This document shows positions 4,333 through 57,362 of a DNA stretch of 64,000 bases, piece by piece (positions within the stretch are counted from its first letter, which is position 1; every line of letters starts with the position of its first letter). Under the pieces are notes generated by a model that was not told the DNA's origin, did not search any database, and saw only the letters and a list, made by a program, of their open reading frames with translations. This DNA is from an uncultured Ohtaekwangia sp. (GTDB lineage: Bacteria > Bacteroidota > Bacteroidia > Cytophagales > Cyclobacteriaceae). The stretch covers positions 117,320 to 181,319 of the forward strand of contig CAYNCP010000002.1 of assembly GCA_964395905.1 (NCBI GenBank), read 5' to 3'. A program made the position numbers and the translations under genes.

Positions 4333-4344
4333 AATCTTGGATGT

Positions 4345-6649: not shown

Positions 6650-6803
6650 GGATTATTTTTATTAAGGATTGTCCAATTTCGATCATTTTAAGTTGAACTG
6701 AATTTATTCAGGCATTTTTTTTATAAAAATGGGTCTTCAAATTATGGATATTTCAACTAAATTGATATTCTCAAATCAAAGGTGGCCATAATTAACAAAC
6801 GCT

Positions 6804-7241: not shown

Positions 7242-7377
7242 GGCACTCATTGTGCTCCTTCAAAGAAGTAAGCTTCCTGTTTTTTTTCAATAGACTATAT
7301 TAATATTAGCTGCCGCGGTATCATTTTTTATGATGACGGACTCAGTAGATGCATGGTAATTGTTATACTTTAGTGAA

Positions 7378-8691
7378 ATGAGAAAGATGGCATTGCTTTG
7401 TGTGTTGACGGTCACCCTGTCAGGTGCAGTTGCTCAATTTAAAAACATCAAGTTAGCTGAGCAGAAGAATGATGGTCGTCCTATGGTGGAACCTAGTATA
7501 GTTGTTAATCAAAAAGACGAGAAGAATATTATTGCGGCTTACAGTTTAGACCGCATCAATTACACTTTTGATAGCGGTGAAACCTGGAAAGAGACAACGG
7601 TGACTTCACCCTATGGTGTATATGGGGATGTGGTTTTGGAATCGGATAAAAAAGGCAATGTTTATTTTATGCATCTGTCGGATCCAAGTGGCGAAGGACG
7701 AAGTAATGAAGCTTGGCTGGACAGAATTGTTTGTCATTTGTCTTCTGATGGTGGGAAAAGCTGGGATGAAGGCCATTCTATTGGTCACAACCCACCAAAG
7801 GATCAGGACAAGCCCTGGGTGGCCATTCATCCGAGAAAAGGAACTTTAGTAGCCACTTGGACACAATTTGATCAATACGGACTTGACGATCCTGCCTGTC
7901 AATCCAGCATTTTATTCAGCAGTTCCTCCAATGGGAAGAAATGGAGTAATCCATATCAGCTGAATCAAAATCCTGGCGATTGCATCGATGGCGACAATAC
8001 CACAGAAGGTGCTGTACCTGCAATAGGATATGATGGTAAAATATTTGTGACATGGTCCAATGCCGGCACCATTTACCTGGATCGATCTTATGATAATGGA
8101 AGCACCTGGTTGCGCAATGATATTCCCATTGCCAAACAACATGGCGGCTGGGATATGGATATTCCGGGATTACGCAGATGTAATGGAATGCCGGTATTGA
8201 AAATTGACAATAGCACAGGCAAAAACAGCGGAACACTTTTTGTTTTGTGGGCCGATCAAAAGAATGGCGAGGAAAATACTGACATTTGGTTAATACGGTC
8301 GCCCAATCATGGCGACAATTGGACTGCACCTTATAAACTCAACCAGGACACAACCTCCAGACATCAGTTTTTGCCATGGATGACGATTGATCAGTCTAAC
8401 GGATATATTTATATAGTGTATTACGACAGGAGGAACTATGATGACAATCGAACCGATGTTTACATGGCTTACTCTGCAGACGGATATTCTTTTCAGGAAA
8501 TAAGAATCAGTGAAACGCCATTTGTTCCGACTGCAGATACCTTTTTTGGTGACTATACCAATATTTCTGCTCACAATGGGATAATCGCGCCTATTTGGGC
8601 CAGGATGGATGACGGCAAAACCAGCATTTGGACCACCATCATCAAACAAGAGGATCTCTTTAAGCCAACTGAGCCCGCCAAGAAGAAATAG
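7378..8691 (+). CDS. Secreted BNR/Asp-box beta-propeller (sialidase-like family) protein
   Basis: Signal peptide from ATG 7378; Asp-boxes TFDSGETW, SSDGGKSW, SYDNGSTW, SPNHGDNW; C-terminal GDY motif. Confidence 0.75.
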   Translation: MRKMALLCVLTVTLSGAVAQFKNIKLAEQKNDGRPMVEPSIVVNQKDEKNIIAAYSLDRINYTFDSGETWKETTVTSPYGVYGDVVLESDKKGNVYFMHLSDPSGEGRSNEAWLDRIVCHLSSDGGKSWDEGHSIGHNPPKDQDKPWVAIHPRKGTLVATWTQFDQYGLDDPACQSSILFSSSSNGKKWSNPYQLNQNPGDCIDGDNTTEGAVPAIGYDGKIFVTWSNAGTIYLDRSYDNGSTWLRNDIPIAKQHGGWDMDIPGLRRCNGMPVLKIDNSTGKNSGTLFVLWADQKNGEENTDIWLIRSPNHGDNWTAPYKLNQDTTSRHQFLPWMTIDQSNGYIYIVYYDRRNYDDNRTDVYMAYSADGYSFQEIRISETPFVPTADTFFGDYTNISAHNGIIAPIWARMDDGKTSIWTTIIKQEDLFKPTEPAKKK

Positions 8692-12465: not shown

Positions 12466-15231
12466 TTAGAATCTTACGTTTACGGCTAGGTTGATTAACA
12501 TACCCAGCTGACTGAAATGATATCCATCGTATGTCATTTGAGAATAACGCTGATTAAATGTGATCAGGTTAGATTCATTTTTCAATACGACAGGATCTGC
12601 CAGCAGGGCTTCTCCTGTAGGGCCGTCAGCTACAAATTCCCACTCAGGTACCACATTCAACAAGTTGTTCAGGTTCAATGTGAAATTTACCTTTTCAGAA
12701 GCAGCGTAATTGATACTTAAGTCAGTTACCACCTTTGGAATAAATTCAGTTCTCAAGTCGGAATTCATACCCTGTTGTTTGAAGGTAGTTTTACCGAAGT
12801 AAGTATTATTAAGGGAGAATATGAATTTATTCACACTATAATCTACACCCAGAATCCATTTTGTTTTTGGTCTTGACGTAAAGAAAAGTGCTTCTTGGGT
12901 GGCATCTACAACTGATTGACCTGAATTGGCAACGAACGCAGGGTTGTTGACCGCACCGTCTCTTTCGTTTTCGATGGTATAGTTACCTGCAAGGTTAAAT
13001 CTTAACGGTCCTGATTTGTAGTTAGCCACCACATCAATTCCTGATGTACGGGTATCAATAGCGTTAACGAAAAAACTGATATCAGATAATCCCTGGAAAG
13101 CTGGACCAGCCGGAGGGATAATCTCATTGCTTAATACAATTCTGTCTTTCACCTGAATGTTGTAGTAGTCAACAGTGAAGTTGAAATTCTCATTGGGTCT
13201 TGCGCCCAAACCTACAGTTAAGTTGGTGGATGTTTCAGCATCCAATTGCGGAATTTTCAAGAGTGTGGCTTCCCTTGAAACATTGCTCACCAGACCACCC
13301 ACCTGGATACCTTGCCCTGGGATGAAGCTATACTGTGCTTTCTGGGTATAAATCTGATGCAAAGTAGGTGCCCTAAAACCGGTCGATACTGATCCTCTGA
13401 GGGTGATCTTATCTTCCATAAATTTATAACGTGAGCTCACTTTCCAAACGAAGGCACTTCCAAAGTCGCTGTAGTTTTCTACGCGCGCTGTACCGTTTAA
13501 AAGAAAATCTTTAGTTACATCAAAAGCCAAATCGAAATAACCACCAAAGTTGTATCGATTGAATTTTCCGGAATTCTCTGGTCGGTTACCAGCAAAAGAG
13601 TCAGCACCACCACCATCGTATGACGACAGTTCACCTTCAATTACCGTAAACGTTTCGGACCTGAACTCAGATCCAAATGCAATACCGATTTGGTCAGAAA
13701 CTACTTTTGAAATATCAACGTTACCGACCGAATGATTGAATTGCGTTCCGCCCGGATCAAAAGACACCTGACTATTTTCACGATACAGGCTTGAACTGGG
13801 AACCATCTCACCTGGATCAACAATACCATCTGTGTTGGCGTCTATCCATTGTGCGGGAGAATAAACAAAATTTCTATTGTGTGAATTTACCACCCTGTAC
13901 GTTTGACGGTTGCCACCCGTTGTAAAGCTTACGTCATAAATCCAACCGTTTTGTTTGGATTTAAAACCGACCGTTCCATTGTAATCATTGAGGTCACCAT
14001 CAAAAGTAGGCACATAACCATTGTACCCGCCAGCATTGGTTGGGTGATCGCCAGGGAAGAAGTCAGCCAAATACGGAAAATCTGCAAGGGTCCTCCAGTA
14101 AGGAGTTCTGTAATTGGCAAAGCTGTTTACTTTTTTGTAGACATAGGCGGCATTGGCGTACACGTTTGTATTTTCATTGATATCAAATCCTCCATTTACT
14201 AAAAATTTGGAGGCGGTAGTCTCAGGAGATCCGTTGATATTGCCTGCATCAGGTTTCATGGCCAAGAATGTCTGTACGTCTGCCAGTGCTGCGCCAAAGT
14301 CGCCAGCTTCACCGGCAGCATCCACTGTACCTGGTCTGTTGGCCAGATTAACTTTGGATAAATCAACGGTGTAATTCAAAAAGCCCTTTCCATCTCCAAG
14401 ACTGGTTCCATTATTCAAACTCAGCCCCACTGTTTCGCCATCGCCTTCTGAAGTCATCCCGGTTCTCAAAGTAAATGATCCTCCGTCTGTACCATCATTA
14501 AGTATGATGTTCATTACGCCCGCAATGGCATCAGAACCATATTGAGCCGATGCACCATCTCTCAGAATTTCCACTCGCTTGATGGCATCGGTTGGAATGG
14601 CTGAGATATCTGCTCCTGTTTCTCCACGACCGGGAGAAGTTTGGGTATAAAGCAGTGCACTTAAATTTTTACGTTTTCCATTGATCAAAATCAACGTTCT
14701 GCTGGGGCCCATGTTCCTGATTTCATACGGGTCCAATAACGAAGTCGCATCGTTAACCGGAGTTTGCACGGTGTTGAATGAAGGAACGCGATATTGCAAG
14801 GCTTTATCGAAAGTCATTTGACCGGTTGATTTCAAGTTGTCACTGGACAAAATGTCTACGGGCAACGGGGTATCGGTGACCGATCGGGGCTGGGTACGCG
14901 AACCTACAATAATGACTCCTCCCAATTCAGTTACGTCTTCTAAAAGTGTAATGCTAAGATTGCGATTTTCACCTGCAGCAAGGGTGATGTCTTGTGTTTG
15001 CGAGACATATCCAATATAGCTGAAGGTTACTTTGTGTGTGCCTGCAGAAAGAGACAGGGTATATCTTCCGTCTGTATCGGTGACGGTTCCGATATTGGAT
15101 CCGGCACTTACGGTGGCCCCGATTACTGGTCCATCACTACTATTTACAACGCCTGATAGCGTTTGTGCCTGTACAAAAGCAGGCAGGGCCAATAGCAGTA
15201 ATAGCGCATATGCGTTTTTTACTATTCTCAT
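12466..15231 (-). CDS. TonB-dependent receptor with N-terminal carboxypeptidase-regulatory-like domain
   Basis: Signal peptide; plug motifs RTLILINGKR and IKRVEILRDGASAQYGSDAIAGVMNI; beta-barrel ending in VNVRF. Confidence 0.92.
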   Translation of the reverse strand: MRIVKNAYALLLLLALPAFVQAQTLSGVVNSSDGPVIGATVSAGSNIGTVTDTDGRYTLSLSAGTHKVTFSYIGYVSQTQDITLAAGENRNLSITLLEDVTELGGVIIVGSRTQPRSVTDTPLPVDILSSDNLKSTGQMTFDKALQYRVPSFNTVQTPVNDATSLLDPYEIRNMGPSRTLILINGKRKNLSALLYTQTSPGRGETGADISAIPTDAIKRVEILRDGASAQYGSDAIAGVMNIILNDGTDGGSFTLRTGMTSEGDGETVGLSLNNGTSLGDGKGFLNYTVDLSKVNLANRPGTVDAAGEAGDFGAALADVQTFLAMKPDAGNINGSPETTASKFLVNGGFDINENTNVYANAAYVYKKVNSFANYRTPYWRTLADFPYLADFFPGDHPTNAGGYNGYVPTFDGDLNDYNGTVGFKSKQNGWIYDVSFTTGGNRQTYRVVNSHNRNFVYSPAQWIDANTDGIVDPGEMVPSSSLYRENSQVSFDPGGTQFNHSVGNVDISKVVSDQIGIAFGSEFRSETFTVIEGELSSYDGGGADSFAGNRPENSGKFNRYNFGGYFDLAFDVTKDFLLNGTARVENYSDFGSAFVWKVSSRYKFMEDKITLRGSVSTGFRAPTLHQIYTQKAQYSFIPGQGIQVGGLVSNVSREATLLKIPQLDAETSTNLTVGLGARPNENFNFTVDYYNIQVKDRIVLSNEIIPPAGPAFQGLSDISFFVNAIDTRTSGIDVVANYKSGPLRFNLAGNYTIENERDGAVNNPAFVANSGQSVVDATQEALFFTSRPKTKWILGVDYSVNKFIFSLNNTYFGKTTFKQQGMNSDLRTEFIPKVVTDLSINYAASEKVNFTLNLNNLLNVVPEWEFVADGPTGEALLADPVVLKNESNLITFNQRYSQMTYDGYHFSQLGMLINLAVNVRF

Positions 15232-15763: not shown

Positions 15764-18175
15764 TTATTCACTGCGGAGTGCATTTACCGGATTACTTAAA
15801 GTTGCATTTACGATTTGTATGCTGATGGTTATCACTGTAATGAACAGGGTAATAAGAATCGTGTATAGAAAAATCATGAAATTGAGTTGCAGGTGATAAG
15901 CAAATCCGTTCAGCCATTGCTTTGCAAAATAAATCACCAAAGGAATAGCTGCCATATTGGCCACCACTACCAGCAACAAAAATTCCCTTGAAAGCAAAGA
16001 GGCAAGGTTCCACATGCTTGCCCCCAGTATCTTTCTGAGGCCAATCTCTTTGGTTTTGGCTGTAATCAGGAATGAGACCAAACCGAACAAACCTATTGCA
16101 GCTATCAAAATGGTGATGACGGAAAATAGGGAGAATACTTTGGCAGTTTGTTGCTCTTTGGCATATTGATTGGCAAATGTATCACTCAGGAAAAAGTAGC
16201 TGAACTCATTTTGAGGAAAGTAGGTCGTCCAAACACTGCTTAAGGTTTCAATCAGATTTTTTGTATCAGCGGCAGCAAATCGAATGGCGTACAGATAGGA
16301 ATACTCATTGTTGAAATCAATGGCACTGGGAGCGATTTTATTTTGAAGCCCAAGGTCATGGTAGTTTTTGACTACGCCAATCACAATGCCTGCCGGACGC
16401 TGCGATGGGCTGACAATTCTTTTGCCGATGGCATTTTCTGGTGTTTCCCAACCCATCTGTAATACGGCCTCTTCATTGATAATCAAACCATCTTCATCTG
16501 ATTTTCTGTCGGGATCGAAATTGCGACCTGCCAGCAAGGTCAGGTCCAACGTACTTATGTAGTTTTCATCCGCAGCAATGTATTGCATCTCTACCAGGTA
16601 ATCTCCATCTTCCTTGCCCTCCGGGTACGCCCACTGTCCGCGCCAGCCAGATACGGCTGGAAGTGCATTGCAAAACGACACTTCTTTCACCACGGTTTGT
16701 CCTTTCAGTTCGTTCAAGAATCCATCGTACGTATTGCCGTCCGTCAGTTGGGTACGGGCCACATTGATCACCAACACTTCATCGCTGGTGAAACCCAGCT
16801 CGCGACTTTGCATGTATTGCAATTGATTGATAACAATCAGCGTGCCTGCTACCAGGCTTACCGAAATGATAAACTGTGCCACCACGAGTACACGCCTCAG
16901 TTGAACTCCCTTAGAGCTGGTGTGCATTTTTCCCTTCAAAATTTCTGCTGGTTTGTAAGCGGAAATCACCCATGCCGGATAGTAGCCTGCGCATAACGCA
17001 ATGAAAGCCAACAGCGCGAAAATACCGATGATGATTTGGGCATCAAGCAAGGCAGCCATGGTATAATTTTTGGTGAGCAATTGATTGAACATGGGCAAGA
17101 ACATGCCAATGATTGCTATGGCAATTACAAATGAGAAAAGCGTAATGACCAACGACTCACTTAAAAACTGACCCACCAATCGCGTACGCGAAGAGCCCAC
17201 TACTTTCTTGACCCCTACTTCTTTGGCCCGGTAAACTGAGCGAGCCGTGGCCAAATTGATAAAGTTGATGCAGGCCAGTATGATGACAAACAACGCGACA
17301 CCACTCAACAAATAAACCGTAGTGATGCTTCCCAGAGGGCCCATGCCATTGCCGGCATTTGATTGCAGGTAGATCTCTTTCATAGGTTCGAACCCTATAG
17401 CAGCTTTGACGCCCCATTGTTGCATCATTTCACCAGCATACTGGTTATAGAGATTTTGCGCTTTTTTGAAGAAGTCCTGCGCATTGGTGTTGGGTTTGAG
17501 CAGCACATAGTTGCGCATATTAAAATTGCCCCACCCGGTAGTATAACTAAAGTCAGGAGATAACTTCTCAAACGATGCGAATGATGGCAGCAAGTCGGCT
17601 ACCATGTGCGAGTTGGAGGGTATGTCTTTCATCACACCGGTGATATGAAATTCTAACGTATCGTTAAAAATCAAAGTCTTGCCTAAAGCAGACTGACCGG
17701 GAAAATATTTGGCCTCCATCTTTTCCGAGATCACGATGGAGAAAGGTTTTTGTAAAGCCGATTCGGCATTGCCCTGAATGAGCGGAAATGAGAACAAGGT
17801 GAAAAATTCGGGGCTGACGAAATGTGCCTTTTCACGCACTTTCTTTCCTTCGAAAGTTACCATCAAATTGCCGGCACTGCGGGTGTACAATACTTGCTCC
17901 ACTTCCGGAAATTCACGCCTCAATATGTCACCAATGGGCCAGGCATTGGTTTCGTTTCTTCCCCCCTGGCCCTGATCACTGTTGAAGATGGTAATCACCC
18001 GATAAAGCCGGTCTTTATTGGCATGAAACTTATCGAAGGATAGCTCATCCAGTGCATACAACATGATTAATATTCCGGCCGAAAGGCCCAACGCCAACCC
18101 GACCAGGTTGATCAGGGTGTAGCCTTTGAATTTCATCAGGCTGCGCAGGGTTATTTTTAGGTAATGTTGGAGCAT
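15764..18175 (-). CDS. ABC transporter permease, MacB/FtsX family (duplicated Bacteroidota ~800-aa type)
   Basis: INLVGLALG, IILACINFINLATARS..RAKEVGVKKVVGS, AAIGLFGL...KTKEIGLRKILGA. Confidence 0.92.
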   Translation of the reverse strand: MLQHYLKITLRSLMKFKGYTLINLVGLALGLSAGILIMLYALDELSFDKFHANKDRLYRVITIFNSDQGQGGRNETNAWPIGDILRREFPEVEQVLYTRSAGNLMVTFEGKKVREKAHFVSPEFFTLFSFPLIQGNAESALQKPFSIVISEKMEAKYFPGQSALGKTLIFNDTLEFHITGVMKDIPSNSHMVADLLPSFASFEKLSPDFSYTTGWGNFNMRNYVLLKPNTNAQDFFKKAQNLYNQYAGEMMQQWGVKAAIGFEPMKEIYLQSNAGNGMGPLGSITTVYLLSGVALFVIILACINFINLATARSVYRAKEVGVKKVVGSSRTRLVGQFLSESLVITLFSFVIAIAIIGMFLPMFNQLLTKNYTMAALLDAQIIIGIFALLAFIALCAGYYPAWVISAYKPAEILKGKMHTSSKGVQLRRVLVVAQFIISVSLVAGTLIVINQLQYMQSRELGFTSDEVLVINVARTQLTDGNTYDGFLNELKGQTVVKEVSFCNALPAVSGWRGQWAYPEGKEDGDYLVEMQYIAADENYISTLDLTLLAGRNFDPDRKSDEDGLIINEEAVLQMGWETPENAIGKRIVSPSQRPAGIVIGVVKNYHDLGLQNKIAPSAIDFNNEYSYLYAIRFAAADTKNLIETLSSVWTTYFPQNEFSYFFLSDTFANQYAKEQQTAKVFSLFSVITILIAAIGLFGLVSFLITAKTKEIGLRKILGASMWNLASLLSREFLLLVVVANMAAIPLVIYFAKQWLNGFAYHLQLNFMIFLYTILITLFITVITISIQIVNATLSNPVNALRSE

Positions 18176-40886: not shown

Positions 40887-41648
40887 ATGACTCCAAAGAG
40901 AATAGCACTTATTACGGGTGCCACTTCCGGCATTGGCGAAGCCACTGCAAGGCTTTTAGCTGTACACTCATTTAAATTAATCCTCTGCGGAAGGAGGAGG
41001 GAACGGCTCGACAGGTTGCAAAAGGAATTATTAAAGTCTACGGAGGTTACTACGTTGACTTTTGATGTTCGCCATCGAGGGGAGGTGTCACGTGCAATAG
41101 GGTCATTGAGCAAGGAATGGCAGCAAGTGGATGTTCTGATCAACAATGCCGGCAATGCGCATGGATTAGCCCCAATTCAGAGTGGGAGTGTTGACGATTG
41201 GGATGCCATGATTGACATCAATGTGAAGGGCCTGCTTTATGTATCTCGTGCCATCCTGCCAGGCATGGTGGAAAGAAGTGCCGGGCATATTGTTAATCTG
41301 GGGTCTATTGCGGGTAAAGAAACTTACCCGAACGGAAATGTTTACTGCGGCAGCAAGTATGCGGTGGATGCCATCACCAAGGGCATGCGCATCGATTTGA
41401 ATGCATATGGAATAAAAGTAACAGCAATCCATCCGGGGCTCGTGGAAACTGAATTTTCATTGGTTCGATTTAAAGGCGATGAAGAAAGGGCAAAATCGGT
41501 GTACCAGGGCTATCAGCCGCTGCTTCCGGAAGATATTGCTGATTTAATACTATTCACTTTAAACAGGCCAGCCCATGTAGTTGTAGCCGACCTGGTGGTG
41601 TTTCCAGTTGCGCAGGCCAGTTCCACGATTGTGAAAAAAACCTTATAA
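40887..41648 (+). CDS. SDR family NAD(P)-dependent oxidoreductase (YdfG-like)
   Basis: TGATSGIG, NNAG, GSIAG, YCGSK (YxxxK), PGLVETEF. Confidence 0.92.
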   Translation: MTPKRIALITGATSGIGEATARLLAVHSFKLILCGRRRERLDRLQKELLKSTEVTTLTFDVRHRGEVSRAIGSLSKEWQQVDVLINNAGNAHGLAPIQSGSVDDWDAMIDINVKGLLYVSRAILPGMVERSAGHIVNLGSIAGKETYPNGNVYCGSKYAVDAITKGMRIDLNAYGIKVTAIHPGLVETEFSLVRFKGDEERAKSVYQGYQPLLPEDIADLILFTLNRPAHVVVADLVVFPVAQASSTIVKKTL

Positions 41649-42305
41649 TAAGATTACTTTTTCAAGAGCAGCATCATTGATTTCATGTCCGCCTTTAAAT
41701 TGGATTTGTGTAGGCACTACCTGCAGTCGTTGACTGAGCATCTCCATCTCTTTCTTTTTGTCTGGTGAAATAAACGGATCGTCCTTTCCATAGACCGCCA
41801 GTATCTCCTTGTTGGCAAAAATATTTTTTCCATGCTCAAAGTTCATATCGGCTGGGAATATGCCGGCCCACAAAATAAAGCGATCAAATCTTGCCCGGCC
41901 GCTGAGCGCCCAACGGGTAATAGTAGCTGCACCTTGAGAAAATCCTAAAAGCGTAACGCGGGCATTATTGATTTTATTCAACTCGTAGTCATAAATAGAC
42001 TGCAGGTAGTTGATATAATTTTCAATATCCATTTCTCTGTTTTCCCGGGTCATCCAGGTTGCCCCCACCCGGTTGGTGCCACCGGCCATCCTGGTGGGTA
42101 TGTCTTCCAGGTAAAAACGGGAAAGGCCTTCAGGGGCAATAACGCATATACCTTTACGGGATAGTAATTCAAACTTCTTGATAAAGAACCGGGCCAATTG
42201 ACCATAACCATGAGTAACAAACCATACCTCCGGTTCGGCCTTTATCACTTCACCAAGCTTGAAGTATCGTGCCCGGTAGGTAAACTGAAGCGAAAGCTCT
42301 TTCAT
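41643..42305 (-). CDS. Alpha/beta hydrolase (phospholipase/carboxylesterase)
   Basis: HGYGQ, GFSQG nucleophile elbow, DPF and GGH catalytic positions. Confidence 0.85.
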   Translation of the reverse strand: MKELSLQFTYRARYFKLGEVIKAEPEVWFVTHGYGQLARFFIKKFELLSRKGICVIAPEGLSRFYLEDIPTRMAGGTNRVGATWMTRENREMDIENYINYLQSIYDYELNKINNARVTLLGFSQGAATITRWALSGRARFDRFILWAGIFPADMNFEHGKNIFANKEILAVYGKDDPFISPDKKKEMEMLSQRLQVVPTQIQFKGGHEINDAALEKVILL

Positions 42306-42321: not shown

Positions 42322-42359
42322 AGAAAGCCGCCACATCCACATTGGAAATGGCGGCTGCC
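42322..42359 (-). terminator. Hairpin closing the SiaC-ABC operon
   Basis: AGCCGCCA...TGGCGGCT inverted repeat about 25 nt after the stop of the 143-aa gene; short T-run on minus (TTTCTC). Confidence 0.55.
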
Positions 42360-42381
42360 TAATATAATGGTTGGATTCAAA

Positions 42382-42813
42382 TTATCTTTTAAATCCCAGC
42401 GCGCTGCCTCCGCAATAAGTGGCTGAGCCATCGAAGGTATATTGAATGTAGTAGATGCCTGTGGCGTTGCAAGGATATGCGATGGCTGAAATGAATTGAT
42501 CATTCACTTTACTGCTGGCGACTTTGTTTCGCTTGCTGTCATACAGGCTTACCACCAACCCATCAGGACTGTTGCCATCGGCACAAAGATTAATCATGTA
42601 CTGCGTTCCTTTGGTAAACACATAGGAGTACTCAACTTTTTCTTTATTTCCGCCATCTCCGTCTATTTTATAGCTTTTTAAAAAATTGAACCCGCTGCTT
42701 AATTTAGGAATGCAAGCATTGCTAAGATTGTCGGCATCACATTCTGCATTGAGTCCGGTTGAGCCATAGGCTGCCGAAATGATCATAAGAATTAATATTA
42801 TCGTCTTTTTCAT
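42382..42813 (-). CDS. Secreted hypothetical protein (143 aa, 5 Cys, beta-rich)
   Basis: Signal peptide; YVFTKGTQYMINLC...VSLYD...YPCNATGIYY pattern suggests a PPC-like beta-sandwich. Confidence 0.75.
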   Translation of the reverse strand: MKKTIILILMIISAAYGSTGLNAECDADNLSNACIPKLSSGFNFLKSYKIDGDGGNKEKVEYSYVFTKGTQYMINLCADGNSPDGLVVSLYDSKRNKVASSKVNDQFISAIAYPCNATGIYYIQYTFDGSATYCGGSALGFKR

Positions 42814-42826
42814 ATCCTGTTCGCTA

Positions 42827-43723
42827 TTAGCTAATGATTTTATTTCTAATTGAGTTGGTCGCTGACATAATATTTTTTACATCATCTTCTGTTATGTCAA
42901 TGGTGGTGGTACTGTTGTCTTTGATTACGGCTACCCCGTCTACCACTTCCATCGTTGATTCCTTATAGGTGTAGGTGATGTTAATATTATTGAAGGCCGC
43001 CTCCAATTCCTTCAGATCCTTCAATAACGATGCCATATTTTCATCATTCTCGTAAAATGAAAAGAGAAGAAGGATCTGTTCCAGCGTTATTTTTTGCTCC
43101 CCAATCTTTTCGCGAAGGTCCTTATGATCCGGGTTTTTCATAGCCAATTGGCAGGTTACCTGCATGGCCTCTATCCAGCCACCTGTAAGCAGCAATACGC
43201 TTAAATTAGAACGGTTCTGCTCTTGCAGGTAGTGATTAATCGAATTGAAGTTTTGTGTGGTGATAAGCAAAAGGGAATCCAGGTTTCTGCTGTTAGTGGC
43301 CAGTCGCGCAATGGTTTCAATGTCAAAAAATTGACCAATGTTCAATTGGTTGGCAAGTGATTTTATGGTCGTCAGGTACTTGATTCCGTCCTTATTTTGC
43401 TCATAAATATTGGTGTACCCTAAGTCTGTACCGTATACCCCCAGATTGAGTGCCATTTTGTAGTTTGTGTTGTACTTGGATAGGTTGTCGGGTGTATTCA
43501 ACAGGCTGGCATTGTACTTGACCTTGGATTGCTTAAGCAATACAGAAATCTCCAACGGGCTTGGGATTTGACCCAATATGCTCCCGATTACTTCCTGGTC
43601 AATGGACGGCCCCTGGTTGAGGGTAGAATCTAAGCTTTCTTCAAATGCCTTTTCATCAGGTTTTTTCCCTGAACCGCATGACATTAATACGAAGGCAGCT
43701 AAAGCCACAAATAGAATTCTCAT
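42827..43723 (-). CDS. Hypothetical alpha-helical lipoprotein (298 aa)
   Basis: Lipobox VLMSC16; PSPLE, ALNLGVYGTDLGY, GGWIE, KIGEQK segments. Confidence 0.8.
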   Translation of the reverse strand: MRILFVALAAFVLMSCGSGKKPDEKAFEESLDSTLNQGPSIDQEVIGSILGQIPSPLEISVLLKQSKVKYNASLLNTPDNLSKYNTNYKMALNLGVYGTDLGYTNIYEQNKDGIKYLTTIKSLANQLNIGQFFDIETIARLATNSRNLDSLLLITTQNFNSINHYLQEQNRSNLSVLLLTGGWIEAMQVTCQLAMKNPDHKDLREKIGEQKITLEQILLLFSFYENDENMASLLKDLKELEAAFNNINITYTYKESTMEVVDGVAVIKDNSTTTIDITEDDVKNIMSATNSIRNKIIS

Positions 43724-43785
43724 AATTGATCATTTAGGGATACCAAAATAAATAATTAAGCTGGCACTTACCAAAATTGGCAGGT

Positions 43786-46700
43786 TTACTTTGACTTTGA
43801 CACTGCGAATTTACCAGATGAATTGACTAATTTTCTCAATAGTTCAAAATAAAGAAACACATAAAGTAATGCCGTCATTAGCCAAATGGCCATGGAATTA
43901 AATAGGAAAGTGCTGAACTGAATTCCCAAGAAGTGTTTTTGCGGAAAGAAAAAGCCGGTTCTATAGTCAAGCGCGTGGAGCGGACTTGGATCCTGAAATA
44001 CAGGGTCTATTAGCTGAATTACTCTGCCCTGGTGAATGACCAATCTCTCCTTTGTATTCACGTTCCTCACCAAATCAGAAAGACTTTCATTAAAGTAGAG
44101 ATTTTTCTCCTGATTGAGGTCGAAGCCTTGTTTCTCATAAAATAACTTTTTCTTATCTGAGATAACAATTTGCTCGTTGTAAACATCCTGATAATGTCTT
44201 CGGTAATCCATAATGTAGGTTTGAAGTTGTTGACCAAACTCCTTTGTGTATCCGGCAACAGTAAGGGAGATTGCCAAATTACCATCATTCAGTTTGCCTT
44301 TAAATGGATCATTGATGATCTGACTTCTCAGGATCTGCAGATTTATGGCCATCTGATTTCTTACTGAATCTGCCTGGTTATCAAAATTGTCAAGTATGAA
44401 TTGATTTCTCGCTTGTAACTCATCGGCTACATAGGCAGACTTGAAGTCTGCCTTTGATGCCTTTTTCTCATATTCATAAAACCCTTGCTCGTAGTTGTTG
44501 TCCATGAATTGTTCTACTGCTAATGCTTCATAGGCCCACCTCGAAGCCATCATATCCGCCACTATGGGTACTTTTTCTTTATTGCTAATTACACTGTGTA
44601 GCTTGTCAAAGCTAAACAGCACACCGCTCAAAATCATTTGTGGAATCAGCAGCAGCGGAATGAGCACGTAAACAGTAACAGCCGAGTTAAATGCAGAAGA
44701 TATGTTGAGGCCAAGCACGTTGGCCATGCAGGAAGTGGTAAACAAAATGAACCAAAAAGATAGCGTAATTCCCTTGATCTCTAAAACCAAATTTCCAACC
44801 AAAACGAATAGCAATGTTTGAATGGCAGAAAGCAGGAACAGGATGCTGATTTTTGAAACGAGGTAACTATTCCAGCTCAGGTTGAGGAATGATTCTCTCT
44901 TTAAAATTTTCCTGTCCCTGATTATCTCTTCGGCACTTACGGTAAGTCCCATAAACAGGGCTACTATTATACTCATTAAAAAAAATGCAGGTAGATTTTC
45001 ATTGAATCTGAATAGATAGCTCTGACCGCCAGGAGCGCTCTTATACCGGATAATAAACGAAAGTATCAATGCCAGCAAGGGAGCCTCCAGTAAATTGATG
45101 AGCAGATACTGCGTATTGCTTATTTTAGACTTTAAGTCACGCGAGGCAAAGATGAGGGTCTGTTTTATTCTGTTTGGAATCCTGAGCGACTGGGGTGGAT
45201 CTTCTTTTTCATCGGCAACACGTATTATTTTAAATTTGTTTTTATACATGTCGTGCCATTGCACGGGGGTGACTTTTCTCTTGTTGGTCGGTTGACCGTA
45301 CTCATCAACTACTTTCGCTTCAATGATGTTGAATATTTGTTCCGGGTTTACGTTTCCACAGGTTTCGCATTGACCTCTTTCGCTATGTACCTGGTGGGTG
45401 GCTCTCTTAAAGTATGAAACGGCATCAACGGGGGCACCGATATAAGTTGGATAGCCACCTGTATCCATTATGATCATTTTGTCAAACATCTTATAAATGT
45501 CTGATGATGGCTGATGAATGATAACGAAAACCAACTTCCCTTTTAAAGAAAGTTCTTTGAGCAAGTCGATTACATTTTCAGAGTCGCGGGAAGATAGTCC
45601 TGATGTTGGTTCGTCCAGAAAGAGAATAGCTGGCTCCCGTATGAGTTCAAGTGCTATATTCAGTCTTTTTCGTTGACCGCCACTTATTTTCTTGTCAAGT
45701 ACAGATCCAACTTTTAAATCTTTTCTGGTTTCAAGCCCCAGATTTTCGAGTACGGAATGAACCCGATTCCTGATTTCAGTATCCGACAAGTTGGCAAAGC
45801 AAAGCCTGGCGTTATAGTACAAATTCTCAAAAACAGTCAGTTCTTCAATCAGGAGGTCGTCCTGGGCAACATAGCCAACCACGCCTTTAATTTTGTCCTG
45901 GCGTGAATGAATATTGTATCCGTTGATGAGTATTTCTCCTTTGGTTGGCTGCTCCAGCCCTGCCAGCACATTGAGCAATGTGGTCTTGCCTGCACCGCTG
46001 GCCCCCATAATGCCTATCAGTTTCCCCGGACCCTCAGAAATGATTATGTTTCTTAGCCCGATTGCCCCGCTTGAAAATTGATACTCATCAACAACTGCAT
46101 TAAAAGAAAGCTTCGTAGTTTGAATTTCCTCATTGAAGTCGGCAACAATATCACTATAGTACAGCGCACCTCCTGCTTGTAATTTAATGGTGCTTCCATG
46201 TGAGAAAAGATAAATGCGATTGTGCTGCATCACAAATCCATTTAACAGGTGTGAGTCATCACCCAGGTATTGTGCAAAGTAAAGTTCCACACTTGGCACT
46301 TTTAGAAAAAAAAGATTGCCGTCAATTTCCGTCTGAATGTGCTTTTGTTTTTCGGCAGATTTAGTTGCTAAAGAATTAACCACGAGTATGTCAGTAAAGT
46401 TGAGTTCTGCCATGTTGGTGGTTATCACAAAGGTCTCTATCAATTTGTATTCGGCAGCGCTGATGTTAAACACAGTGGAAACCGTATTGATAATCTCCAT
46501 TCGCTGTGGCGTAAAATTATTATCGGCACCTACCAGTTCAAGCAACTTGATCAACACAATCACCTTCTGCTTTTGCGTAAGCGTGCGATTTATTTTTTTG
46601 CAAATACCCAGTGTTACAATTGAGTCTTTTACGGATGGAGTGGTGTAAGTAGTTATTTCCCTGGCAGCGTTGCTTTCATTGAATTCAGAATACTTATCGT

Positions 46701-46851
46701 AGCGATCAAGATATTCCTGGATAGAAGCTTGATCCAGTTCTTGTTGGAAAAATCGAATCACATACTGCCGTTCCTTGATCGTCACCCCACCATCCTGCTT
46801 GGTGATAATTGCAAAAAGTTGCGTTAGTGCCTTGAGTATCTCTTCACTCAT
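43786..46851 (-). CDS. ABCG-like NBD-TMD half transporter with N-terminal TerB-like domain
   Basis: Walker A GASGAGKT (aa 283), GYVAQDD, ISGGQ, ILFLDEPTSGL, IIHQP; ABC2-type TM helices; large extracytoplasmic loop; TerB-like aa 1-145. Confidence 0.9.
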   Translation of the reverse strand: MSEEILKALTQLFAIITKQDGGVTIKERQYVIRFFQQELDQASIQEYLDRYDKYSEFNESNAAREITTYTTPSVKDSIVTLGICKKINRTLTQKQKVIVLIKLLELVGADNNFTPQRMEIINTVSTVFNISAAEYKLIETFVITTNMAELNFTDILVVNSLATKSAEKQKHIQTEIDGNLFFLKVPSVELYFAQYLGDDSHLLNGFVMQHNRIYLFSHGSTIKLQAGGALYYSDIVADFNEEIQTTKLSFNAVVDEYQFSSGAIGLRNIIISEGPGKLIGIMGASGAGKTTLLNVLAGLEQPTKGEILINGYNIHSRQDKIKGVVGYVAQDDLLIEELTVFENLYYNARLCFANLSDTEIRNRVHSVLENLGLETRKDLKVGSVLDKKISGGQRKRLNIALELIREPAILFLDEPTSGLSSRDSENVIDLLKELSLKGKLVFVIIHQPSSDIYKMFDKMIIMDTGGYPTYIGAPVDAVSYFKRATHQVHSERGQCETCGNVNPEQIFNIIEAKVVDEYGQPTNKRKVTPVQWHDMYKNKFKIIRVADEKEDPPQSLRIPNRIKQTLIFASRDLKSKISNTQYLLINLLEAPLLALILSFIIRYKSAPGGQSYLFRFNENLPAFFLMSIIVALFMGLTVSAEEIIRDRKILKRESFLNLSWNSYLVSKISILFLLSAIQTLLFVLVGNLVLEIKGITLSFWFILFTTSCMANVLGLNISSAFNSAVTVYVLIPLLLIPQMILSGVLFSFDKLHSVISNKEKVPIVADMMASRWAYEALAVEQFMDNNYEQGFYEYEKKASKADFKSAYVADELQARNQFILDNFDNQADSVRNQMAINLQILRSQIINDPFKGKLNDGNLAISLTVAGYTKEFGQQLQTYIMDYRRHYQDVYNEQIVISDKKKLFYEKQGFDLNQEKNLYFNESLSDLVRNVNTKERLVIHQGRVIQLIDPVFQDPSPLHALDYRTGFFFPQKHFLGIQFSTFLFNSMAIWLMTALLYVFLYFELLRKLVNSSGKFAVSKSK

Positions 46852-46874
46852 ATGTATTTATAAAAATCGCGCTG

Positions 46875-47237
46875 CTAGTTATGTATAAACTCAAATGGAA
46901 CGCTGACCAGTTCAGCAAGTTCCTCACCAATTTCTTCCATGTCTTCATCATCTTCCTTAAAGTACCAGTTTACTTTTGCTCCACTTATTTTTTCTAATAA
47001 GGTAATGATATCCAATACAGATTTTGAAGATTCCGTGTTAAGATACTCAAATTTAAATGTAAAGTAGGTTGCAGGAAGCGGGTCAGATGCGTATTCCTGC
47101 AGCCATTCCGTCACAGGCTGGTAAAATGTTGCCGGGTTGTCGCATAACGACCGCCCGCTAATTTCAAATAGACCCTGGCGTGCATCAAGATTCACTTCAG
47201 GTGTTTCATTGGTAGCTGATATATGTAATGGATTCAT
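46875..47237 (-). CDS. SiaC-family (DUF1987) regulatory phosphoprotein
   Basis: ATNETPEV, ISGRS..DN...FYQPV.EW, FEYLNT68ESSK, VNWY..EDDEDM.E.GEE. Confidence 0.88.
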   Translation of the reverse strand: MNPLHISATNETPEVNLDARQGLFEISGRSLCDNPATFYQPVTEWLQEYASDPLPATYFTFKFEYLNTESSKSVLDIITLLEKISGAKVNWYFKEDDEDMEEIGEELAELVSVPFEFIHN

Positions 47238-47385
47238 TCGTCTTTATAATAATATATGAATGAAATCAGACGATCAAAAGGCGCTTATTGACAATATGAA
47301 TTCAGCCATGATCTTTCGGTCCAATTTAGAGGATTATGCGATATAAATAAAGAAAAGGAAGGGTAGTTCTTGTTGGGTTAAAAAA

Positions 47386-53795: not shown

Positions 53796-56700
53796 TTACT
53801 TTTTTACAGTAATGTACCCTGACAAAGCTTTCCTGCCACTCTTGAATTCGATTTTGTAAAAGTAGATACCTGTTGTGACATCATCACCGTGCTTATTGAT
53901 CCCTTTAAATACGCGGGTATCGTTGTCATAGTTCTCGACCTCAAAAACAAGATCACCCCAGCGGTTGTAAATGGTCACCTTGTTTTCTTTGGTGTCTGGT
54001 AGTGTTTCAATATTTTGAATGATCCACTTACCGTTAAACAAGTCTCCGTTTGGTGAAATGCCGTTGTAGATGATGACATCTCCATCCACATTGATTATAA
54101 ATTCTTGTTGGGTGCAGACATTAACCATGTCACATGCTTCTATTGTAATTCTATCTTGCCCTGCAAATGAAACTGCAAAATAATTGATGTTAAGAATACC
54201 ATTGGTAATCGAAGCACTGGCACCACTAATTGGTTGTATTAAAATCTTTATTGAATTTGGATCCAGGTTACCATCAACATCATTGATTAATGTATTTAAG
54301 TCAAAGGTTGCAATTCCCGCTATTGTTGTTGAGGTGCTTGCCGTTGCAATTACCGGAGGGCTGTTGCTACAGCTTGAACCGCCAATTGTGGCTACCACGG
54401 GTGTTCGGGTACTTTCGCATATTCCATCATTGATGGCTACATAATAAGTAGTCGTTGAGCTGATCACAGGAGTTGTAAACATAGAGTTGACTTGACCAGG
54501 AATAGATGTTCCTCCAGTTGGCGTATCATACCAAACATAGTTGCCATTTATCCCACCGGCAGCACTTAGCGTTACGGCTCCTGCACCGCAGCTAATGCCA
54601 TCGGTGGAAGTTGGAGCGGTTGGAGTTGCATTGATAGTGGCGACCACAGAAGTACGTGTGCTTTCACATGTTCCATTGTTGATACTGACATAGTAAGTTG
54701 TTGTACCTGCAAGTACAGGAGTTGTGTAGGAGCTACTGGTTTCCCCAGCAATGGGGATTCCTCCAGATGCAACGGTGTACCATCGATACTGTCCATTGGT
54801 GCCGCCCGTAGCGTTGAGGGTTACTGTACCTGTATTGCAGCGCGAAGCATCGGTAGTTGAGGGTTGCGCAACAATCGTGACAGTTGCGGTCACTGCCGTT
54901 CTTGAACTCTCACACGTTCCATTGTTGATGGCAACGTAGTAGGTCGTGGTAACAGACAGGATCGGGGTAGTGAGTGAACTATTAACCTGACCTGCAATTG
55001 CAACACCTCCGCTTGGCGAGGTGTACCATCGATAGTTTCCGTCAGTAGAGCCGGAAGCTGTAAGTGTTAACGCTGCCGGGCTGCATGTTGACGCTGATGT
55101 GGTTACAGGAGGTGAGATTCCCGAAGGTATTTTGGTGGCAACAACAGGAACTCTTGGACTTTCACAAACAGCATCGACCAACGTCACATAGTAGGTTGTG
55201 GTGGCGTCAAAACTTGAAATTGTTAGGGATCCATTTGTTTCACCGGCAATCGGTGTGCCACCGGATGCAACAGTGTACCATTGATATTGGCCATTGCTTC
55301 CGCCACAGGCTGAAATGGTAATTGTATCTATACAACTGGAGTTGTCGATAGCGGTGGGAATAGGAACGCAATTGTTATCAACCATTGCGATTCCATTTTG
55401 AAGCAAATTGTTCCAACGATCGAAATAACCTGCTACCAATACCCTGTTCCCGGATGTAGGAGCAATACTGGTAACTAGAGAATTTGCGCCAACACCTGCA
55501 TCAAAGAAATTATCCACGCTTCCATCAGGATATAATCTTGCGATAAAATTTCTTGGGCTGCCATTGTAATTTTGAAACCAACCACCAATTAAAATTTTAC
55601 CTGAGGGATCGAATAGTATTTTATAGATTCCAAGGTCAGTACCTGTGCCATCATCAAAGGTATTGTCCAGGGATCCGTTGACGTTTAGCCTTCGCAATTC
55701 AGTTCGATTGATGTCGTGAACAATTTTTCCGTCTGGCTGAATGGCAGTAACATTGACATTACCTGCCGTTGTAGGAACTGTAAAACCTGAATCTATACTT
55801 CCATTTGCATTCAGTCTGACGATGGTCTGGACGGAAGCGGCATTATAGGTAGTAAAAACCCCTCCAACCAGGACTTGGCCATTGGGCTGGATTTGAATTG
55901 AATTCACCGAACCATTAAATCCCGTACCAATACCAAAACTACCATCAATAGAACCGTTGGAATTCAATCTGATTATTCGGTTTACCAACGTGCCATTGTA
56001 GCTTGTGAATGCCCCGCCAAGGACTATTTTATTATCAGATTGAATAGCTATAGCATTTACATTATTATTAAATCCGGATTGACTTGAGTTAAAAGTCGCA
56101 TCAATGCTTCCATTTGAGTTGAACCTCACGATCCTTCCATAATTGGTACCTGCTATATTAGTGAATCGCCCAACAAGAAGAACCTTGCCATCAGACTGCA
56201 AAGCAATTCTGTCACCCCTTCCGGAAAAAACTGTAAACGGCCATTGTGTAAATCCGGGATCAAGAGATCCGTTGCTCAGCAATCTGCACATGTTGTATTG
56301 AGACCCACCAGTTTCAAAGAAATTGAGTAGAATTTTTCCGTCTGGCTGAACGATCATGTCATCAATTTCTGAATAGTTGGATGGACTGTTGGCTACAGGT
56401 GAAAATGTATTCTCTAAAGCACCGGGCCCGCTATTGCCAATGTAAACTGATGATGTAAAGACGTCTGAGGCATAGGTGCCTGAGATTTTGCATCGATAGT
56501 TGCCTTTTCCAAATCCTCCAGTCGTATTGATACTAAGGGTGGCTGTTGAAGAACCAGAATAGCCACCTGTATCGGAAAGGTCATCGTATACACCTGTTCC
56601 TTCATTAAATACCTGCCACCTATAAACCAGGCCAGGATTTCCTGAAGCAGATGTCGCCAAAGTCACAACGCCACCATTACAAGTGAAATTTTGAGATACC

Positions 56701-57362
56701 GGTTGAGTATCAATGACAATTGGTGGCGTAAGTGAAACGTTATCCAATCGGTTGGTCGTGTTTGCGTCACGATACAGGCCCCTGATTTCAAGGTTGGCGA
56801 TGTCTGAAAGAAAACTGAGCAGTTGCGCCTCCGTTGCCCAAGGGCCAGAAATGCTGTTTGTTGTTTTCCAGTAACCCAGTGTATTATTTAGCGCCACATT
56901 GTAGCTGCCCCAGGAAGGTGGTGCCGGTGGCTGATTTGAAACGGATGGAAAGTAATAAAGGGAAATGCCGCTATTATTGGTGATGATGACCTCCGCGTAG
57001 GAGTTGGGAAGACCGGTCGAACTTTGTTGGATTTCGTAGTGGAGCGTTCCGTTGTAGTATGAACTTTGATTTCCTCGATAGGCCAAAGGTGCTACAAAAT
57101 TGAAAGGAACATAGAAGGTGGTCATGCCAAGCACAATCACGAAAGGAGTCCCGAAGACATGTCCACCCGGATTGCCACCAGTTGAACTATAGCCAATTGA
57201 GCCATCGGCATCGTTAGGCGTTGTCCATCCCTCAGCATTAGCGTTATAAGTACTTGTGATCTGGCCATAAACCATACCTGTGGTCCATACACCAAAATTT
57301 ATAAACATGATGAGTGATAGTAATCGCATGCAGTTGAAAGATAATTTGGACCCAATGATCAA
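53796..57362 (-). CDS. T9SS type-B CTD (gliding-motility-associated C-terminal domain) surface protein with laminin-IV-like, Ig-like, delta-60 propeller and Ig_7-like domains
   Basis: C-terminus IYNGISPNGD..N..W.I...IYNRWGDLVF...GIYFYKI; alternative start ATG 57329. Confidence 0.9.
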   Translation of the reverse strand: MIIGSKLSFNCMRLLSLIMFINFGVWTTGMVYGQITSTYNANAEGWTTPNDADGSIGYSSTGGNPGGHVFGTPFVIVLGMTTFYVPFNFVAPLAYRGNQSSYYNGTLHYEIQQSSTGLPNSYAEVIITNNSGISLYYFPSVSNQPPAPPSWGSYNVALNNTLGYWKTTNSISGPWATEAQLLSFLSDIANLEIRGLYRDANTTNRLDNVSLTPPIVIDTQPVSQNFTCNGGVVTLATSASGNPGLVYRWQVFNEGTGVYDDLSDTGGYSGSSTATLSINTTGGFGKGNYRCKISGTYASDVFTSSVYIGNSGPGALENTFSPVANSPSNYSEIDDMIVQPDGKILLNFFETGGSQYNMCRLLSNGSLDPGFTQWPFTVFSGRGDRIALQSDGKVLLVGRFTNIAGTNYGRIVRFNSNGSIDATFNSSQSGFNNNVNAIAIQSDNKIVLGGAFTSYNGTLVNRIIRLNSNGSIDGSFGIGTGFNGSVNSIQIQPNGQVLVGGVFTTYNAASVQTIVRLNANGSIDSGFTVPTTAGNVNVTAIQPDGKIVHDINRTELRRLNVNGSLDNTFDDGTGTDLGIYKILFDPSGKILIGGWFQNYNGSPRNFIARLYPDGSVDNFFDAGVGANSLVTSIAPTSGNRVLVAGYFDRWNNLLQNGIAMVDNNCVPIPTAIDNSSCIDTITISACGGSNGQYQWYTVASGGTPIAGETNGSLTISSFDATTTYYVTLVDAVCESPRVPVVATKIPSGISPPVTTSASTCSPAALTLTASGSTDGNYRWYTSPSGGVAIAGQVNSSLTTPILSVTTTYYVAINNGTCESSRTAVTATVTIVAQPSTTDASRCNTGTVTLNATGGTNGQYRWYTVASGGIPIAGETSSSYTTPVLAGTTTYYVSINNGTCESTRTSVVATINATPTAPTSTDGISCGAGAVTLSAAGGINGNYVWYDTPTGGTSIPGQVNSMFTTPVISSTTTYYVAINDGICESTRTPVVATIGGSSCSNSPPVIATASTSTTIAGIATFDLNTLINDVDGNLDPNSIKILIQPISGASASITNGILNINYFAVSFAGQDRITIEACDMVNVCTQQEFIINVDGDVIIYNGISPNGDLFNGKWIIQNIETLPDTKENKVTIYNRWGDLVFEVENYDNDTRVFKGINKHGDDVTTGIYFYKIEFKSGRKALSGYITVKK
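54375..55370 (-). repeat. Four tandem ~80-aa Ig-like repeats within the T9SS protein
   Basis: Repeated G.Y.WY...SGG..I.G....S.TTP....TTTYYV...G.CES.R..V.AT. Confidence 0.85.
55400..56420 (-). repeat. About seven delta-60 beta-propeller repeats within the T9SS protein
   Basis: Repeated (A/I)IQ.DGKI(L/V)..G.F and RL..NGS.D..F units. Confidence 0.8.

Follow-up and report, generated by a model that had tools for sequence, protein, structure and literature searches.

A SiaC-associated ABCG-type transporter operon conserved across Bacteroidota has lost its regulatory module in an uncultured Ohtaekwangia species

The stretch of DNA analysed here, 64,000 nucleotides from an uncultured Ohtaekwangia sp. 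(positions 117,320 to 181,319 of contig CAYNCP010000002.1, assembly GCA_964395905.1; hereafter the window), carries on its minus strand four intact open reading frames (ORFs) at 42382–47237, coordinates on which the initial annotation of the sequence agrees. The four genes encode a SiaC-family protein, an ATP-binding cassette (ABC) transporter of the ABCG type, a lipoprotein and a small secreted protein. The data presented below favour the view that these proteins probably constitute a conserved Bacteroidota envelope machine that is built around the ABCG-type transporter, with SiaC as a partner of the transporter, and that has lost its input module in this lineage.

Results

The operon and its conservation

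The first gene, at 46875–47237, encodes a STAS-like partner-switch protein of 120 amino acids that belongs to the SiaC family (DUF1987, PF09345). It is followed by the genes for a 1,021-residue half-transporter (43786–46851), assigned to the ABCG type by Pfam matches, an alignment to ABCG2 and hydropathy, a conserved lipoprotein of 298 residues (42827–43723), recognized by an invariant lipobox Cys, and a secreted protein of 143 residues (42382–42813), which alignments of its relatives suggest to be β-rich and to contain five conserved Cys residues. The latter two proteins belong to unnamed families. The gaps between the four genes, computed from the ORF coordinates, are 23, 62 and 13 nt. A GC-rich hairpin, AGCCGCCA...UGGCGGCU, is located on the same strand at about 42326–42358, downstream of the last stop codon (42382) and ahead of the next gene, which starts at 42305, and is followed by UUCUCAUUU. 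The predicted folding energy of the hairpin is −24.6 kcal/mol (z = −3.7), and none of 200 shuffled sequences folds equally well. Although not listed by a simple terminator scan of the window, the hairpin is very probably the operon terminator, as its position is kept in three relatives (the loci L083, L084 and L001; loci of relatives are designated L and a number) in which the stem sequences differ, and as the hairpin at the equivalent place in Chryseotalea has a clean U9 tail.

Upstream of the SiaC gene, the intergenic region that separates it from a cytidine deaminase gene, cdd (47238–47385, minus strand), contains a candidate promoter, TAAATTGG, at 47321–47328 (minus strand). This element is one base off the Bacteroidota −7 consensus, TAnnTTTG, and is shared by the window, L083 and L084; the ~50-nt block around it is almost identical in the window and L083. 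The exact −7 motif was not found upstream of SiaC, where only the conserved one-mismatch version occurs, nor within the intergenic gaps of the operon. A sigma-70 promoter scan of the window performed no better than on shuffled sequence, and such a promoter model does not hold for Bacteroidota. The location of the genes on one strand, the short gaps, which lack the exact −7 motif, and a conserved terminator solely after the fourth gene are the indications that the four genes are a real conserved operon, of which co-transcription itself is a prediction. The arrangement described by the initial annotation, four co-oriented genes closed by a hairpin, is thus borne out by the ORF coordinates and by folding.

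The conservation of the operon was explored in GTDB species genomes, from which loci were fetched with a pattern derived from the family-specific membrane region of the transporter. At least 600 stretches matched the pattern, 597 of which encode a relative of the transporter. The survey comprised the best 80 of these at least 597 loci, and is consequently biased towards close relatives; synteny was scored over 81 loci from other genomes; ORFs were called in each locus and searched with the window proteins, and all counts refer to loci with enough flanking DNA to be assessed. The loci derive from families of the Cytophagales, from Bacteroidales and Sphingobacteriales, and from other Bacteroidota metagenome-assembled genomes (MAGs). 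All four genes are found together in 48 of 64 loci, showing that the set is syntenic in other genomes. SiaC is directly upstream of the transporter in 61/72 loci, while the lipoprotein and the 143-residue protein are encoded downstream of it in 60/73 and 56/71 loci, respectively.

More distant relatives of the transporter (36–37% identity) are encoded without SiaC and the 143-residue protein. In one of these, L086 (37% transporter identity), a gene of the lipoprotein family (L086:5818–6681) still adjoins the transporter gene. This locus is part of a paralogous subfamily (L063, L070, L072, L076, L077 and L086) in which the lipoprotein gene is upstream of the transporter and neither SiaC nor the 143-residue protein is encoded. 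A single genome can hold both types, as one MAG contains L020, which is of the SiaC type, and L077, which is of the lipoprotein-upstream type. From these comparisons, the transporter and the lipoprotein are the ancient core of the system, to which SiaC and the 143-residue protein were added in one large subfamily.

Two other neighbourhoods were noted among the relatives. In L085 (11064–12531) a transporter relative with 36% identity is followed by genes for NfeD and the flotillin-like FloA in place of the lipoprotein, which hints at a link to membrane organization. In L028 (11626–13269) an unrelated 127-residue protein with a signal peptide and an MFS-like membrane protein are encoded downstream of the transporter.

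The SiaC protein and the regulatory module of its relatives

The window SiaC matches PF09345 with E = 3.5e-36 (123.9 bits, where the cutoff is 24.5), residues 6–119 covering positions 1–119 of the 120 in the profile, and aligns end to end with SiaC from Pseudomonas aeruginosa (PDB 6kko_C, E = 7e-13). The first 85 residues are aligned without gaps, which places Thr68, within a YLNT motif, opposite Thr68 (also YLNT) of the Pseudomonas protein. The score against the NCBIfam equivalog NF038265 (biofilm regulation phosphoprotein), however, is 71.6 bits and thus below the cutoff of 150, indicating that the window protein is a member of the family rather than a functional equivalent of Pseudomonas SiaC. 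Thr68 is kept in 64 of the 65 SiaC proteins that adjoin the transporter; the sole exception, in L084 (GCA_964655635.1; 9606–9968; 81% transporter identity), carries the substitution T68H.

In Chryseotalea sp. WA131a and ~45 other loci the operon is preceded by a regulatory module, such that the gene order is cheR, cheB, a GAF-like gene (~247 residues), a sensor (~1,100 residues), DUF6272, SiaC, transporter, lipoprotein and 143-residue protein. The sensor contains Cache-like (dCache-like), HAMP, GAF, PAS and SpoIIE/PP2C phosphatase domains and is therefore SiaA-like, while the DUF6272 protein is homologous over its full length to SiaB, the kinase of P. aeruginosa (PDB 6kko_A, E = 5.7e-12). The SiaB-like kinase gene is located upstream of SiaC in 51/65 loci and the SiaA-like PP2C sensor phosphatase is present in 48/62; cheR and cheB were found in 45/56 and 42/58 loci, respectively. 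Genes for CheA, CheW or methyl-accepting chemotaxis proteins (MCPs) were not called in the cluster of the relatives, and no GGDEF domain was found in the scanned window proteins or in the cluster genes of L001, where an ABC transporter occupies the output position. As the relatives carry SiaA-like and SiaB-like genes in front of SiaC, the ancestral system is, judged from gene content, a SiaA–SiaB–SiaC partner switch in which an ABC transporter takes the place of the diguanylate cyclase SiaD.

None of this module is present in the window. Searches (tblastn) with the Chryseotalea proteins identified SiaC, the transporter, the lipoprotein, the 143-residue protein and an esterase, but no CheR, CheB, GAF-like protein, sensor or SiaB anywhere in the 64 kb. 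In loci L005–L012 cdd is followed by the regulatory module, starting with cheR, and then by SiaC, whereas in the window cdd lies 148 nt from SiaC. The window arrangement is thus the outcome expected of a deletion of ~6 kb between cdd and SiaC. The short form and the flanking genes of the window recur in the two nearest relatives that were identified (90% and 81% transporter identity); the loss of the module is therefore old and stable.

Erosion of the module, in the regions upstream of the transporter (about 2000–8600 in each locus), is graded across the survey. Only cheR is kept in L014 and L023, L030 contains a weak remnant of SiaB, and the sensor is truncated in L047 and L054. In L051 SiaC is missing as well, and in L067 the sensor phosphatase is directly beside the transporter and neither SiaB nor SiaC is encoded. 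The orphan lineages, in which SiaC has no module, form three adjacent clades in a neighbour-joining tree of the transporter. That the end-points of the deletions differ argues for more than one loss event.

The ABCG-type transporter

The transporter displays, in order, a TerB-like head, a domain of ~120 residues, a nucleotide-binding domain (NBD), a linker with a CxxC motif, five transmembrane (TM) segments, a large periplasmic loop and TM6. The TerB-like N-terminal domain (residues 8–137; 46441–46830, minus strand, as are all transporter features) matches PF05099 with 30.2 bits against a cutoff of 24.4, and TerB is also the precomputed annotation of most transporter homologues. The core of the NBD (residues 272–417; 45601–46038) matches PF00005 (ABC_tran, E = 4.2e-33), and TM1–TM5 fall in an ABC-2 type membrane domain (PF01061, ABC2_membrane, E = 7.5e-19; residues 564–752; 44596–45162). 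The NBD precedes the ABC-2 membrane domain in one polypeptide and the similarity to ABCG proteins spans both domains, residues 275–786 aligning with 73–590 of human ABCG2 over 512 residues (E = 1.2e-40), which assigns the protein to the ABCG type. It scores below the cutoff of the eye-pigment-precursor/White subfamily model TIGR00955 (254.7 versus 736.35 bits).

Hydropathy places the TM segments at residues 583–603, 622–642, 665–687, 695–715 and 723–747, with TM6 at 981–1005. The tail that follows TM6 contains five Lys or Arg residues and no acidic residue. On the basis of TM6, the basic tail and the positive-inside rule, the ~230-residue hydrophilic stretch between TM5 and TM6 (residues about 750–980; 43912–44604) is most likely a giant periplasmic loop, located at the position of extracellular loop 3 in ABCG proteins. 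The protein is therefore more than an NBD and a transmembrane domain (TMD) followed by a tail, the apparent C-terminal extension being most likely such a loop. Cys495 and Cys498 of the CxxC motif in the post-NBD linker (45358–45369) are each at least 90% conserved in 26 members of the family down to 34% identity, and could provide a metal site or a redox switch in the dimer.

A degenerate FHA domain in residues 138–262, suspected from sequence motifs, found no support, as a Pfam search of this region with E ≤ 10 returned no match; the same search of the periplasmic loop was likewise negative, and no FHA match was obtained at E ≤ 0.1 on the whole transporter. The notion that the TerB head is confined to loci with SiaC was also rejected, since SiaC-less paralogues keep the domain. 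The full architecture occurs in more than 150 clusters at 50% identity, with full-length relatives down to 36% identity. Although bacterial NBD–TMD transporters of the ABCG type had been regarded as uncommon, the type is not rare in Bacteroidota, at least 597 relatives being encoded in GTDB species genomes. A Bacteroidota-type transporter, ~60% identical over the segment used as the query, namely the linker after the NBD and the membrane region, was also retrieved from a MAG labelled Candidatus Planktophila lacus, an actinobacterium (L068, CALPOI020000156.1); its presence there is probably a binning error.

The two envelope proteins

The 298-residue protein has the N-terminus MRILFVALAAFVLMSC, which coincides with its hydropathy peak, and the Cys16 of its lipobox is shared by all of 27 diverse homologues, which extend down to 26% identity. 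The protein is accordingly a predicted signal peptidase II substrate, that is, a lipoprotein. The 143-residue protein displays an N-terminal hydrophobic signal (hydropathy), five Cys residues that do not vary among close homologues and, at the C-terminus, an invariant GGSALGFKR. In its homologues the signal peptide mostly ends in A-Q-C. A Gln after the signal peptidase I cleavage site is a known habit of Bacteroidota, with which this sequence fits. Residue 24 of the 143-residue protein (42739–42741, minus strand) is Glu in the window and the nearest relative, and Gln in nearly all homologues. Given the signal peptides, the lipobox and the A-Q-C signal end, both envelope proteins should cross the inner membrane by the Sec pathway.

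The database contains 3,162 relatives of the lipoprotein and 1,481 of the 143-residue protein, all unnamed and none with a Pfam domain, and scans of the two window proteins against Pfam and NCBIfam identified no significant family. Searches of PDB sequences with profiles of the diverse alignments of each yielded nothing below E = 0.003 except one coiled-coil artefact. AlphaFold2 models the lipoprotein, with moderate confidence (predicted local distance difference test, pLDDT, 68.7), as mainly helical apart from a small sheet at the C-terminus; Foldseek matched this model to no PDB entry with E below 0.2. The model of the 143-residue protein is poor (pLDDT 51), and the Foldseek hits to it in the PDB were generic β-sandwiches only (E ≥ 0.06) and were not used.

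Selection and evolutionary rates after loss of the module

In the comparison with L083, the SiaC gene has a dN/dS of 0.083, the transporter gene 0.034, the lipoprotein gene 0.017 and the gene of the 143-residue protein 0.007, the ratios being rough because dS is near saturation. The orphan SiaC thus remains under purifying selection. The ratio of the SiaC to the transporter amino-acid distance is 0.69 where both members of a pair keep the module and 1.65–1.67 in pairs with orphans, so that orphan SiaC evolves ~2.4 times faster relative to the transporter, while the corresponding ratio for the lipoprotein is unchanged (1.0–1.1). In loci that retain the kinase, the EYFNTASSKLILD motif around Thr68 hardly varies; it has drifted in orphan SiaC proteins, the window version being EYLNTESSKSVLD. 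Within the transporter the TerB head is the sole domain with a raised relative rate in the orphan-SiaC lineages (1.27-fold, computed from non-independent pairs, compared with 0.92–1.06 for the other domains), a weak hint that it may be the regulatory or docking domain.

A phosphorylation switch tied to the transporter, as put forward in the initial annotation, consequently holds for the family, given the frequency of the SiaB-like and PP2C genes, but is doubtful for the window, where the module is absent and the region around the phospho-site of SiaC has drifted.

Neighbouring genes

Beyond the terminator lies a gene for a 220-residue cytoplasmic α/β-hydrolase of the phospholipase/carboxylesterase family (41643–42305, minus strand; PF02230, E = 1.7e-11). 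It is a frequent fifth neighbour, being directly downstream of the cluster in 30/68 loci. The surroundings of the operon are otherwise ordinary chromosome, with genes for FtsK, DHODH, a TonB-dependent receptor and a CHU_C cargo protein of the type IX secretion system (T9SS). The T9SS cargo protein (1,188 residues; Laminin_B, DUF5122, Ig_7 and CHU_C; 53796–57362), a MacB/FtsX-type permease (15764–18175) and the TonB-dependent receptor (12466–15231), all on the minus strand, are not linked to the operon in relatives. A reading of the locus as a defence system was rejected, as PADLOC models matched only the generic ABC ATPase.

Discussion

A model of the envelope machine

These data lead us to propose, with somewhat better than even confidence, how the machine would work. 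A homodimeric transporter would use ATP hydrolysis in the cytoplasm to draw a hydrophobic or lipid-like substrate from the inner membrane, and this substrate would enter or pass through the large periplasmic loop. The lipoprotein and the 143-residue protein, the latter presumably a disulfide-bonded β-protein, would be fixed accessory subunits that work with the loop as acceptor or adaptor. They look like accessory subunits rather than cargo because they carry their own Sec-type signals and are extremely conserved, and the pairing of a lipoprotein with the ABC protein persists in distant paralogues that lack SiaC. Unphosphorylated SiaC would bind the cytoplasmic part of the transporter, probably at the TerB-like head or the NBD, and activate or stabilize it, an action that would mirror those of SiaC on SiaD and of MlaB on MlaF. 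In the ancestral form, which is still common, a SiaB-type kinase and a SiaA-type PP2C phosphatase that senses the periplasm would control SiaC, with CheR and CheB beside them. In the lineage of the window the whole input module has been deleted between cdd and SiaC. Most likely, SiaC has here ceased to be switched and is a constitutive partner of the transporter; phosphorylation gating is doubtful and may have been lost in this genome. In P. aeruginosa the unphosphorylated form of SiaC is the one that binds the target (PMC8457831); the retention of SiaC without a kinase, and in one case without Thr68, fits this rule. DUF1987 proteins have also been proposed, although without examples, to modulate adjacent proteins (PMC8457831).

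In its widest form the model describes a Bacteroidota pathway not described before, which we put forward tentatively. A PP2C phosphatase that senses the periplasm and a SiaB kinase, tuned by CheR/CheB without CheA, CheW or MCPs, would switch SiaC, which would directly gate an ABCG-type exporter that transports a lipid or another hydrophobic constituent of the envelope towards the outer membrane or cell surface with the help of two protein families of unknown fold; the window would hold a ‘hard-wired on' derivative of this pathway.

Several observations weigh against the model. Within the transporter it is the periplasmic loop that evolves fastest, while the two proteins proposed to partner it hardly change, which is not the pattern of a tight interface, and the structural models of these two partners are weak. 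In L025, L028 and L044 the full sensor module, SiaC and transporter are kept although the lipoprotein and 143-residue genes are not adjacent. The 1.27-fold rate shift is the single indication of a link between SiaC and the TerB head, a domain that paralogues without SiaC possess as well. Counts from the survey favour close relatives, as noted above. Thr68 is retained in seven of the eight orphan SiaC proteins. In Nafulsella and Cesiribacter a second, divergent set of genes is located just downstream of the cluster (L040:13847–17358, L041:13479–16889 and L045:13914–17347), in which a SpoIIE-like gene is followed, on the opposite strand, by SiaC-like and longer SiaB-like genes. Finally, the window covers 64 kb, and a kinase may be encoded elsewhere in the genome.

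The last three of these points are also the basis of the alternative that survives best, although we regard it as unlikely: that the window SiaC is still switched at Thr68 by a kinase and a phosphatase encoded elsewhere, so that the exporter stays phosphorylation-gated. Conservation of Thr68 and YLNT in a protein that remains under purifying selection speaks for this view, and the additional SiaB/SiaC/PP2C sets of related Cytophagales make cross-talk conceivable. It is less readily reconciled with the lack of any kinase or phosphatase homologue in the 64 kb, the ~2.4-fold relative acceleration of SiaC after loss of the module, the drift of the kinase-facing motif, which extends to T68H in one close relative, and the recurrent, graded erosion of the module that ends in the loss of SiaC itself in L051.

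The ABC protein might instead be a mechanotransducer, like FtsEX, MacB or LolCDE, in which ATP hydrolysis moves the loop and so activates or releases the lipoprotein or the 143-residue protein and no substrate crosses the membrane. A periplasmic insertion of 230 residues, two dedicated and strongly conserved partners in the periplasm or outer membrane and a cluster without conserved genes for substrate-related enzymes are all in keeping with such a role. The membrane domain, however, is of the ABC-2/ABCG type and aligns along its length to ABCG2, and the FtsX/MacB fold of the known mechanotransducers was not detected by Pfam in the transporter. Characterized members of the ABC-2/ABCG fold are exporters or floppases, and mechanotransduction is therefore improbable.

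More doubtful still is the view that the target of SiaC is a protein encoded elsewhere and that its adjacency to the transporter reflects shared regulation only. The sole characterized SiaC acts on a diguanylate cyclase, and the transporter family also occurs without SiaC (L051, L056, L067 and the paralogues). SiaC is, however, immediately upstream of the transporter in most loci across the orders of Bacteroidota, with a gap of only 23 nt in the window; the cluster has neither a conserved GGDEF gene nor another conserved gene that would be an obvious output, and SiaC stays with the transporter after deletion of the sensor and kinase. Export of the lipoprotein and the 143-residue protein as cargo of the transporter, a role suggested for them in the initial annotation, has only their downstream position in the operon in its favour and is very improbable, as both carry classical N-terminal signals (the invariant lipobox Cys and the A-Q-C signal end, respectively), their genes are the slowest-evolving of the set (dN/dS 0.017 and 0.007), and we know of no ABC-2/ABCG-fold transporter that exports folded proteins.

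Comparison with known systems

The partner switch of P. aeruginosa, SiaABCD, resembles the system proposed here in that the window SiaC has the same length, fold family and Thr68, and in that relatives possess a SiaB-type kinase and a HAMP-containing PP2C sensor in the order SiaA, SiaB, SiaC, output. By contrast, an ABC transporter replaces the diguanylate cyclase SiaD as the output, the relatives have a far larger sensor, with Cache-like, GAF and PAS domains, and CheR/CheB beside it, and the window locus has no adjacent SiaA-type phosphatase or SiaB-type kinase.

By analogy, the closest functional parallel is the Mla phospholipid transport system, the resemblance being one of logic, not homology. 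In Mla the ATPase MlaF is bound and stabilized by the STAS protein MlaB, and the remainder of the route consists of a periplasmic carrier and a lipoprotein (PMC7367683). MlaFEDB–MlaC–MlaA thus likewise combines an ABC transporter with a lipoprotein, a soluble protein of the periplasm and a small STAS-type protein of the cytoplasm, and an unswitched orphan SiaC would behave as MlaB. The components differ: no MCE (MlaD) or MlaE family is among the Pfam matches of the operon proteins, the membrane domain is of the ABCG/ABC-2 type and is fused to the NBD, and neither envelope protein resembles MlaC or MlaA in sequence or fold.

The transporter itself shares with the eukaryotic ABCG2, ABCG1 and ABCG5/8 an NBD that precedes the TMD, six TM segments and a main extracellular loop between TM5 and TM6. 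In contrast to these proteins, it displays a TerB-like head and an extra domain of ~120 residues, a TM5–TM6 loop that is several-fold larger (~230 residues), dedicated partners in the periplasm, and SiaC as its regulator. Mycobacterium tuberculosis Rv1747, with which it was initially compared, is reportedly an NBD–TMD half-transporter with N-terminal regulatory domains that is controlled by Ser/Thr phosphorylation. The analogy holds for topology but does not extend to FHA-based control: Rv1747 employs two FHA domains and the Hanks kinase PknF, whereas no FHA domain is detectable in the operon transporter and the signalling proposed here is a partner switch, in which SiaB and a PP2C phosphatase act on a separate STAS-like protein.

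Significance

Our literature search yielded no account of SiaC/DUF1987 in combination with an ABC transporter, none of DUF6272 and none of CheR/CheB together with SpoIIE in Bacteroidota, in line with the earlier statement that the four-gene combination has no functional description. What is new is a SiaABC-type partner switch with a different output, joined to two unnamed protein families, of which the window holds the output half only. Considered alone, the window is the more modest finding of a conserved operon that has lost its regulatory input. SiaC/DUF1987 proteins are widespread and, to our knowledge, a single target, a diguanylate cyclase, has been characterized. If SiaC binds the transporter, it would provide the first SiaC output that is not a cyclase and, after MlaB–MlaF, the second example of STAS-type control of an ABC ATPase. 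The series from the full sensor module through partial deletions to orphan SiaC and, finally, no SiaC is a natural experiment on the role of the switch. Hundreds of Bacteroidota species possess the cluster, which includes two strongly conserved envelope families without relatives in Pfam, NCBIfam or the PDB and therefore offers a defined entry into the envelope biology of a phylum in which lipid and lipoprotein trafficking is poorly understood.

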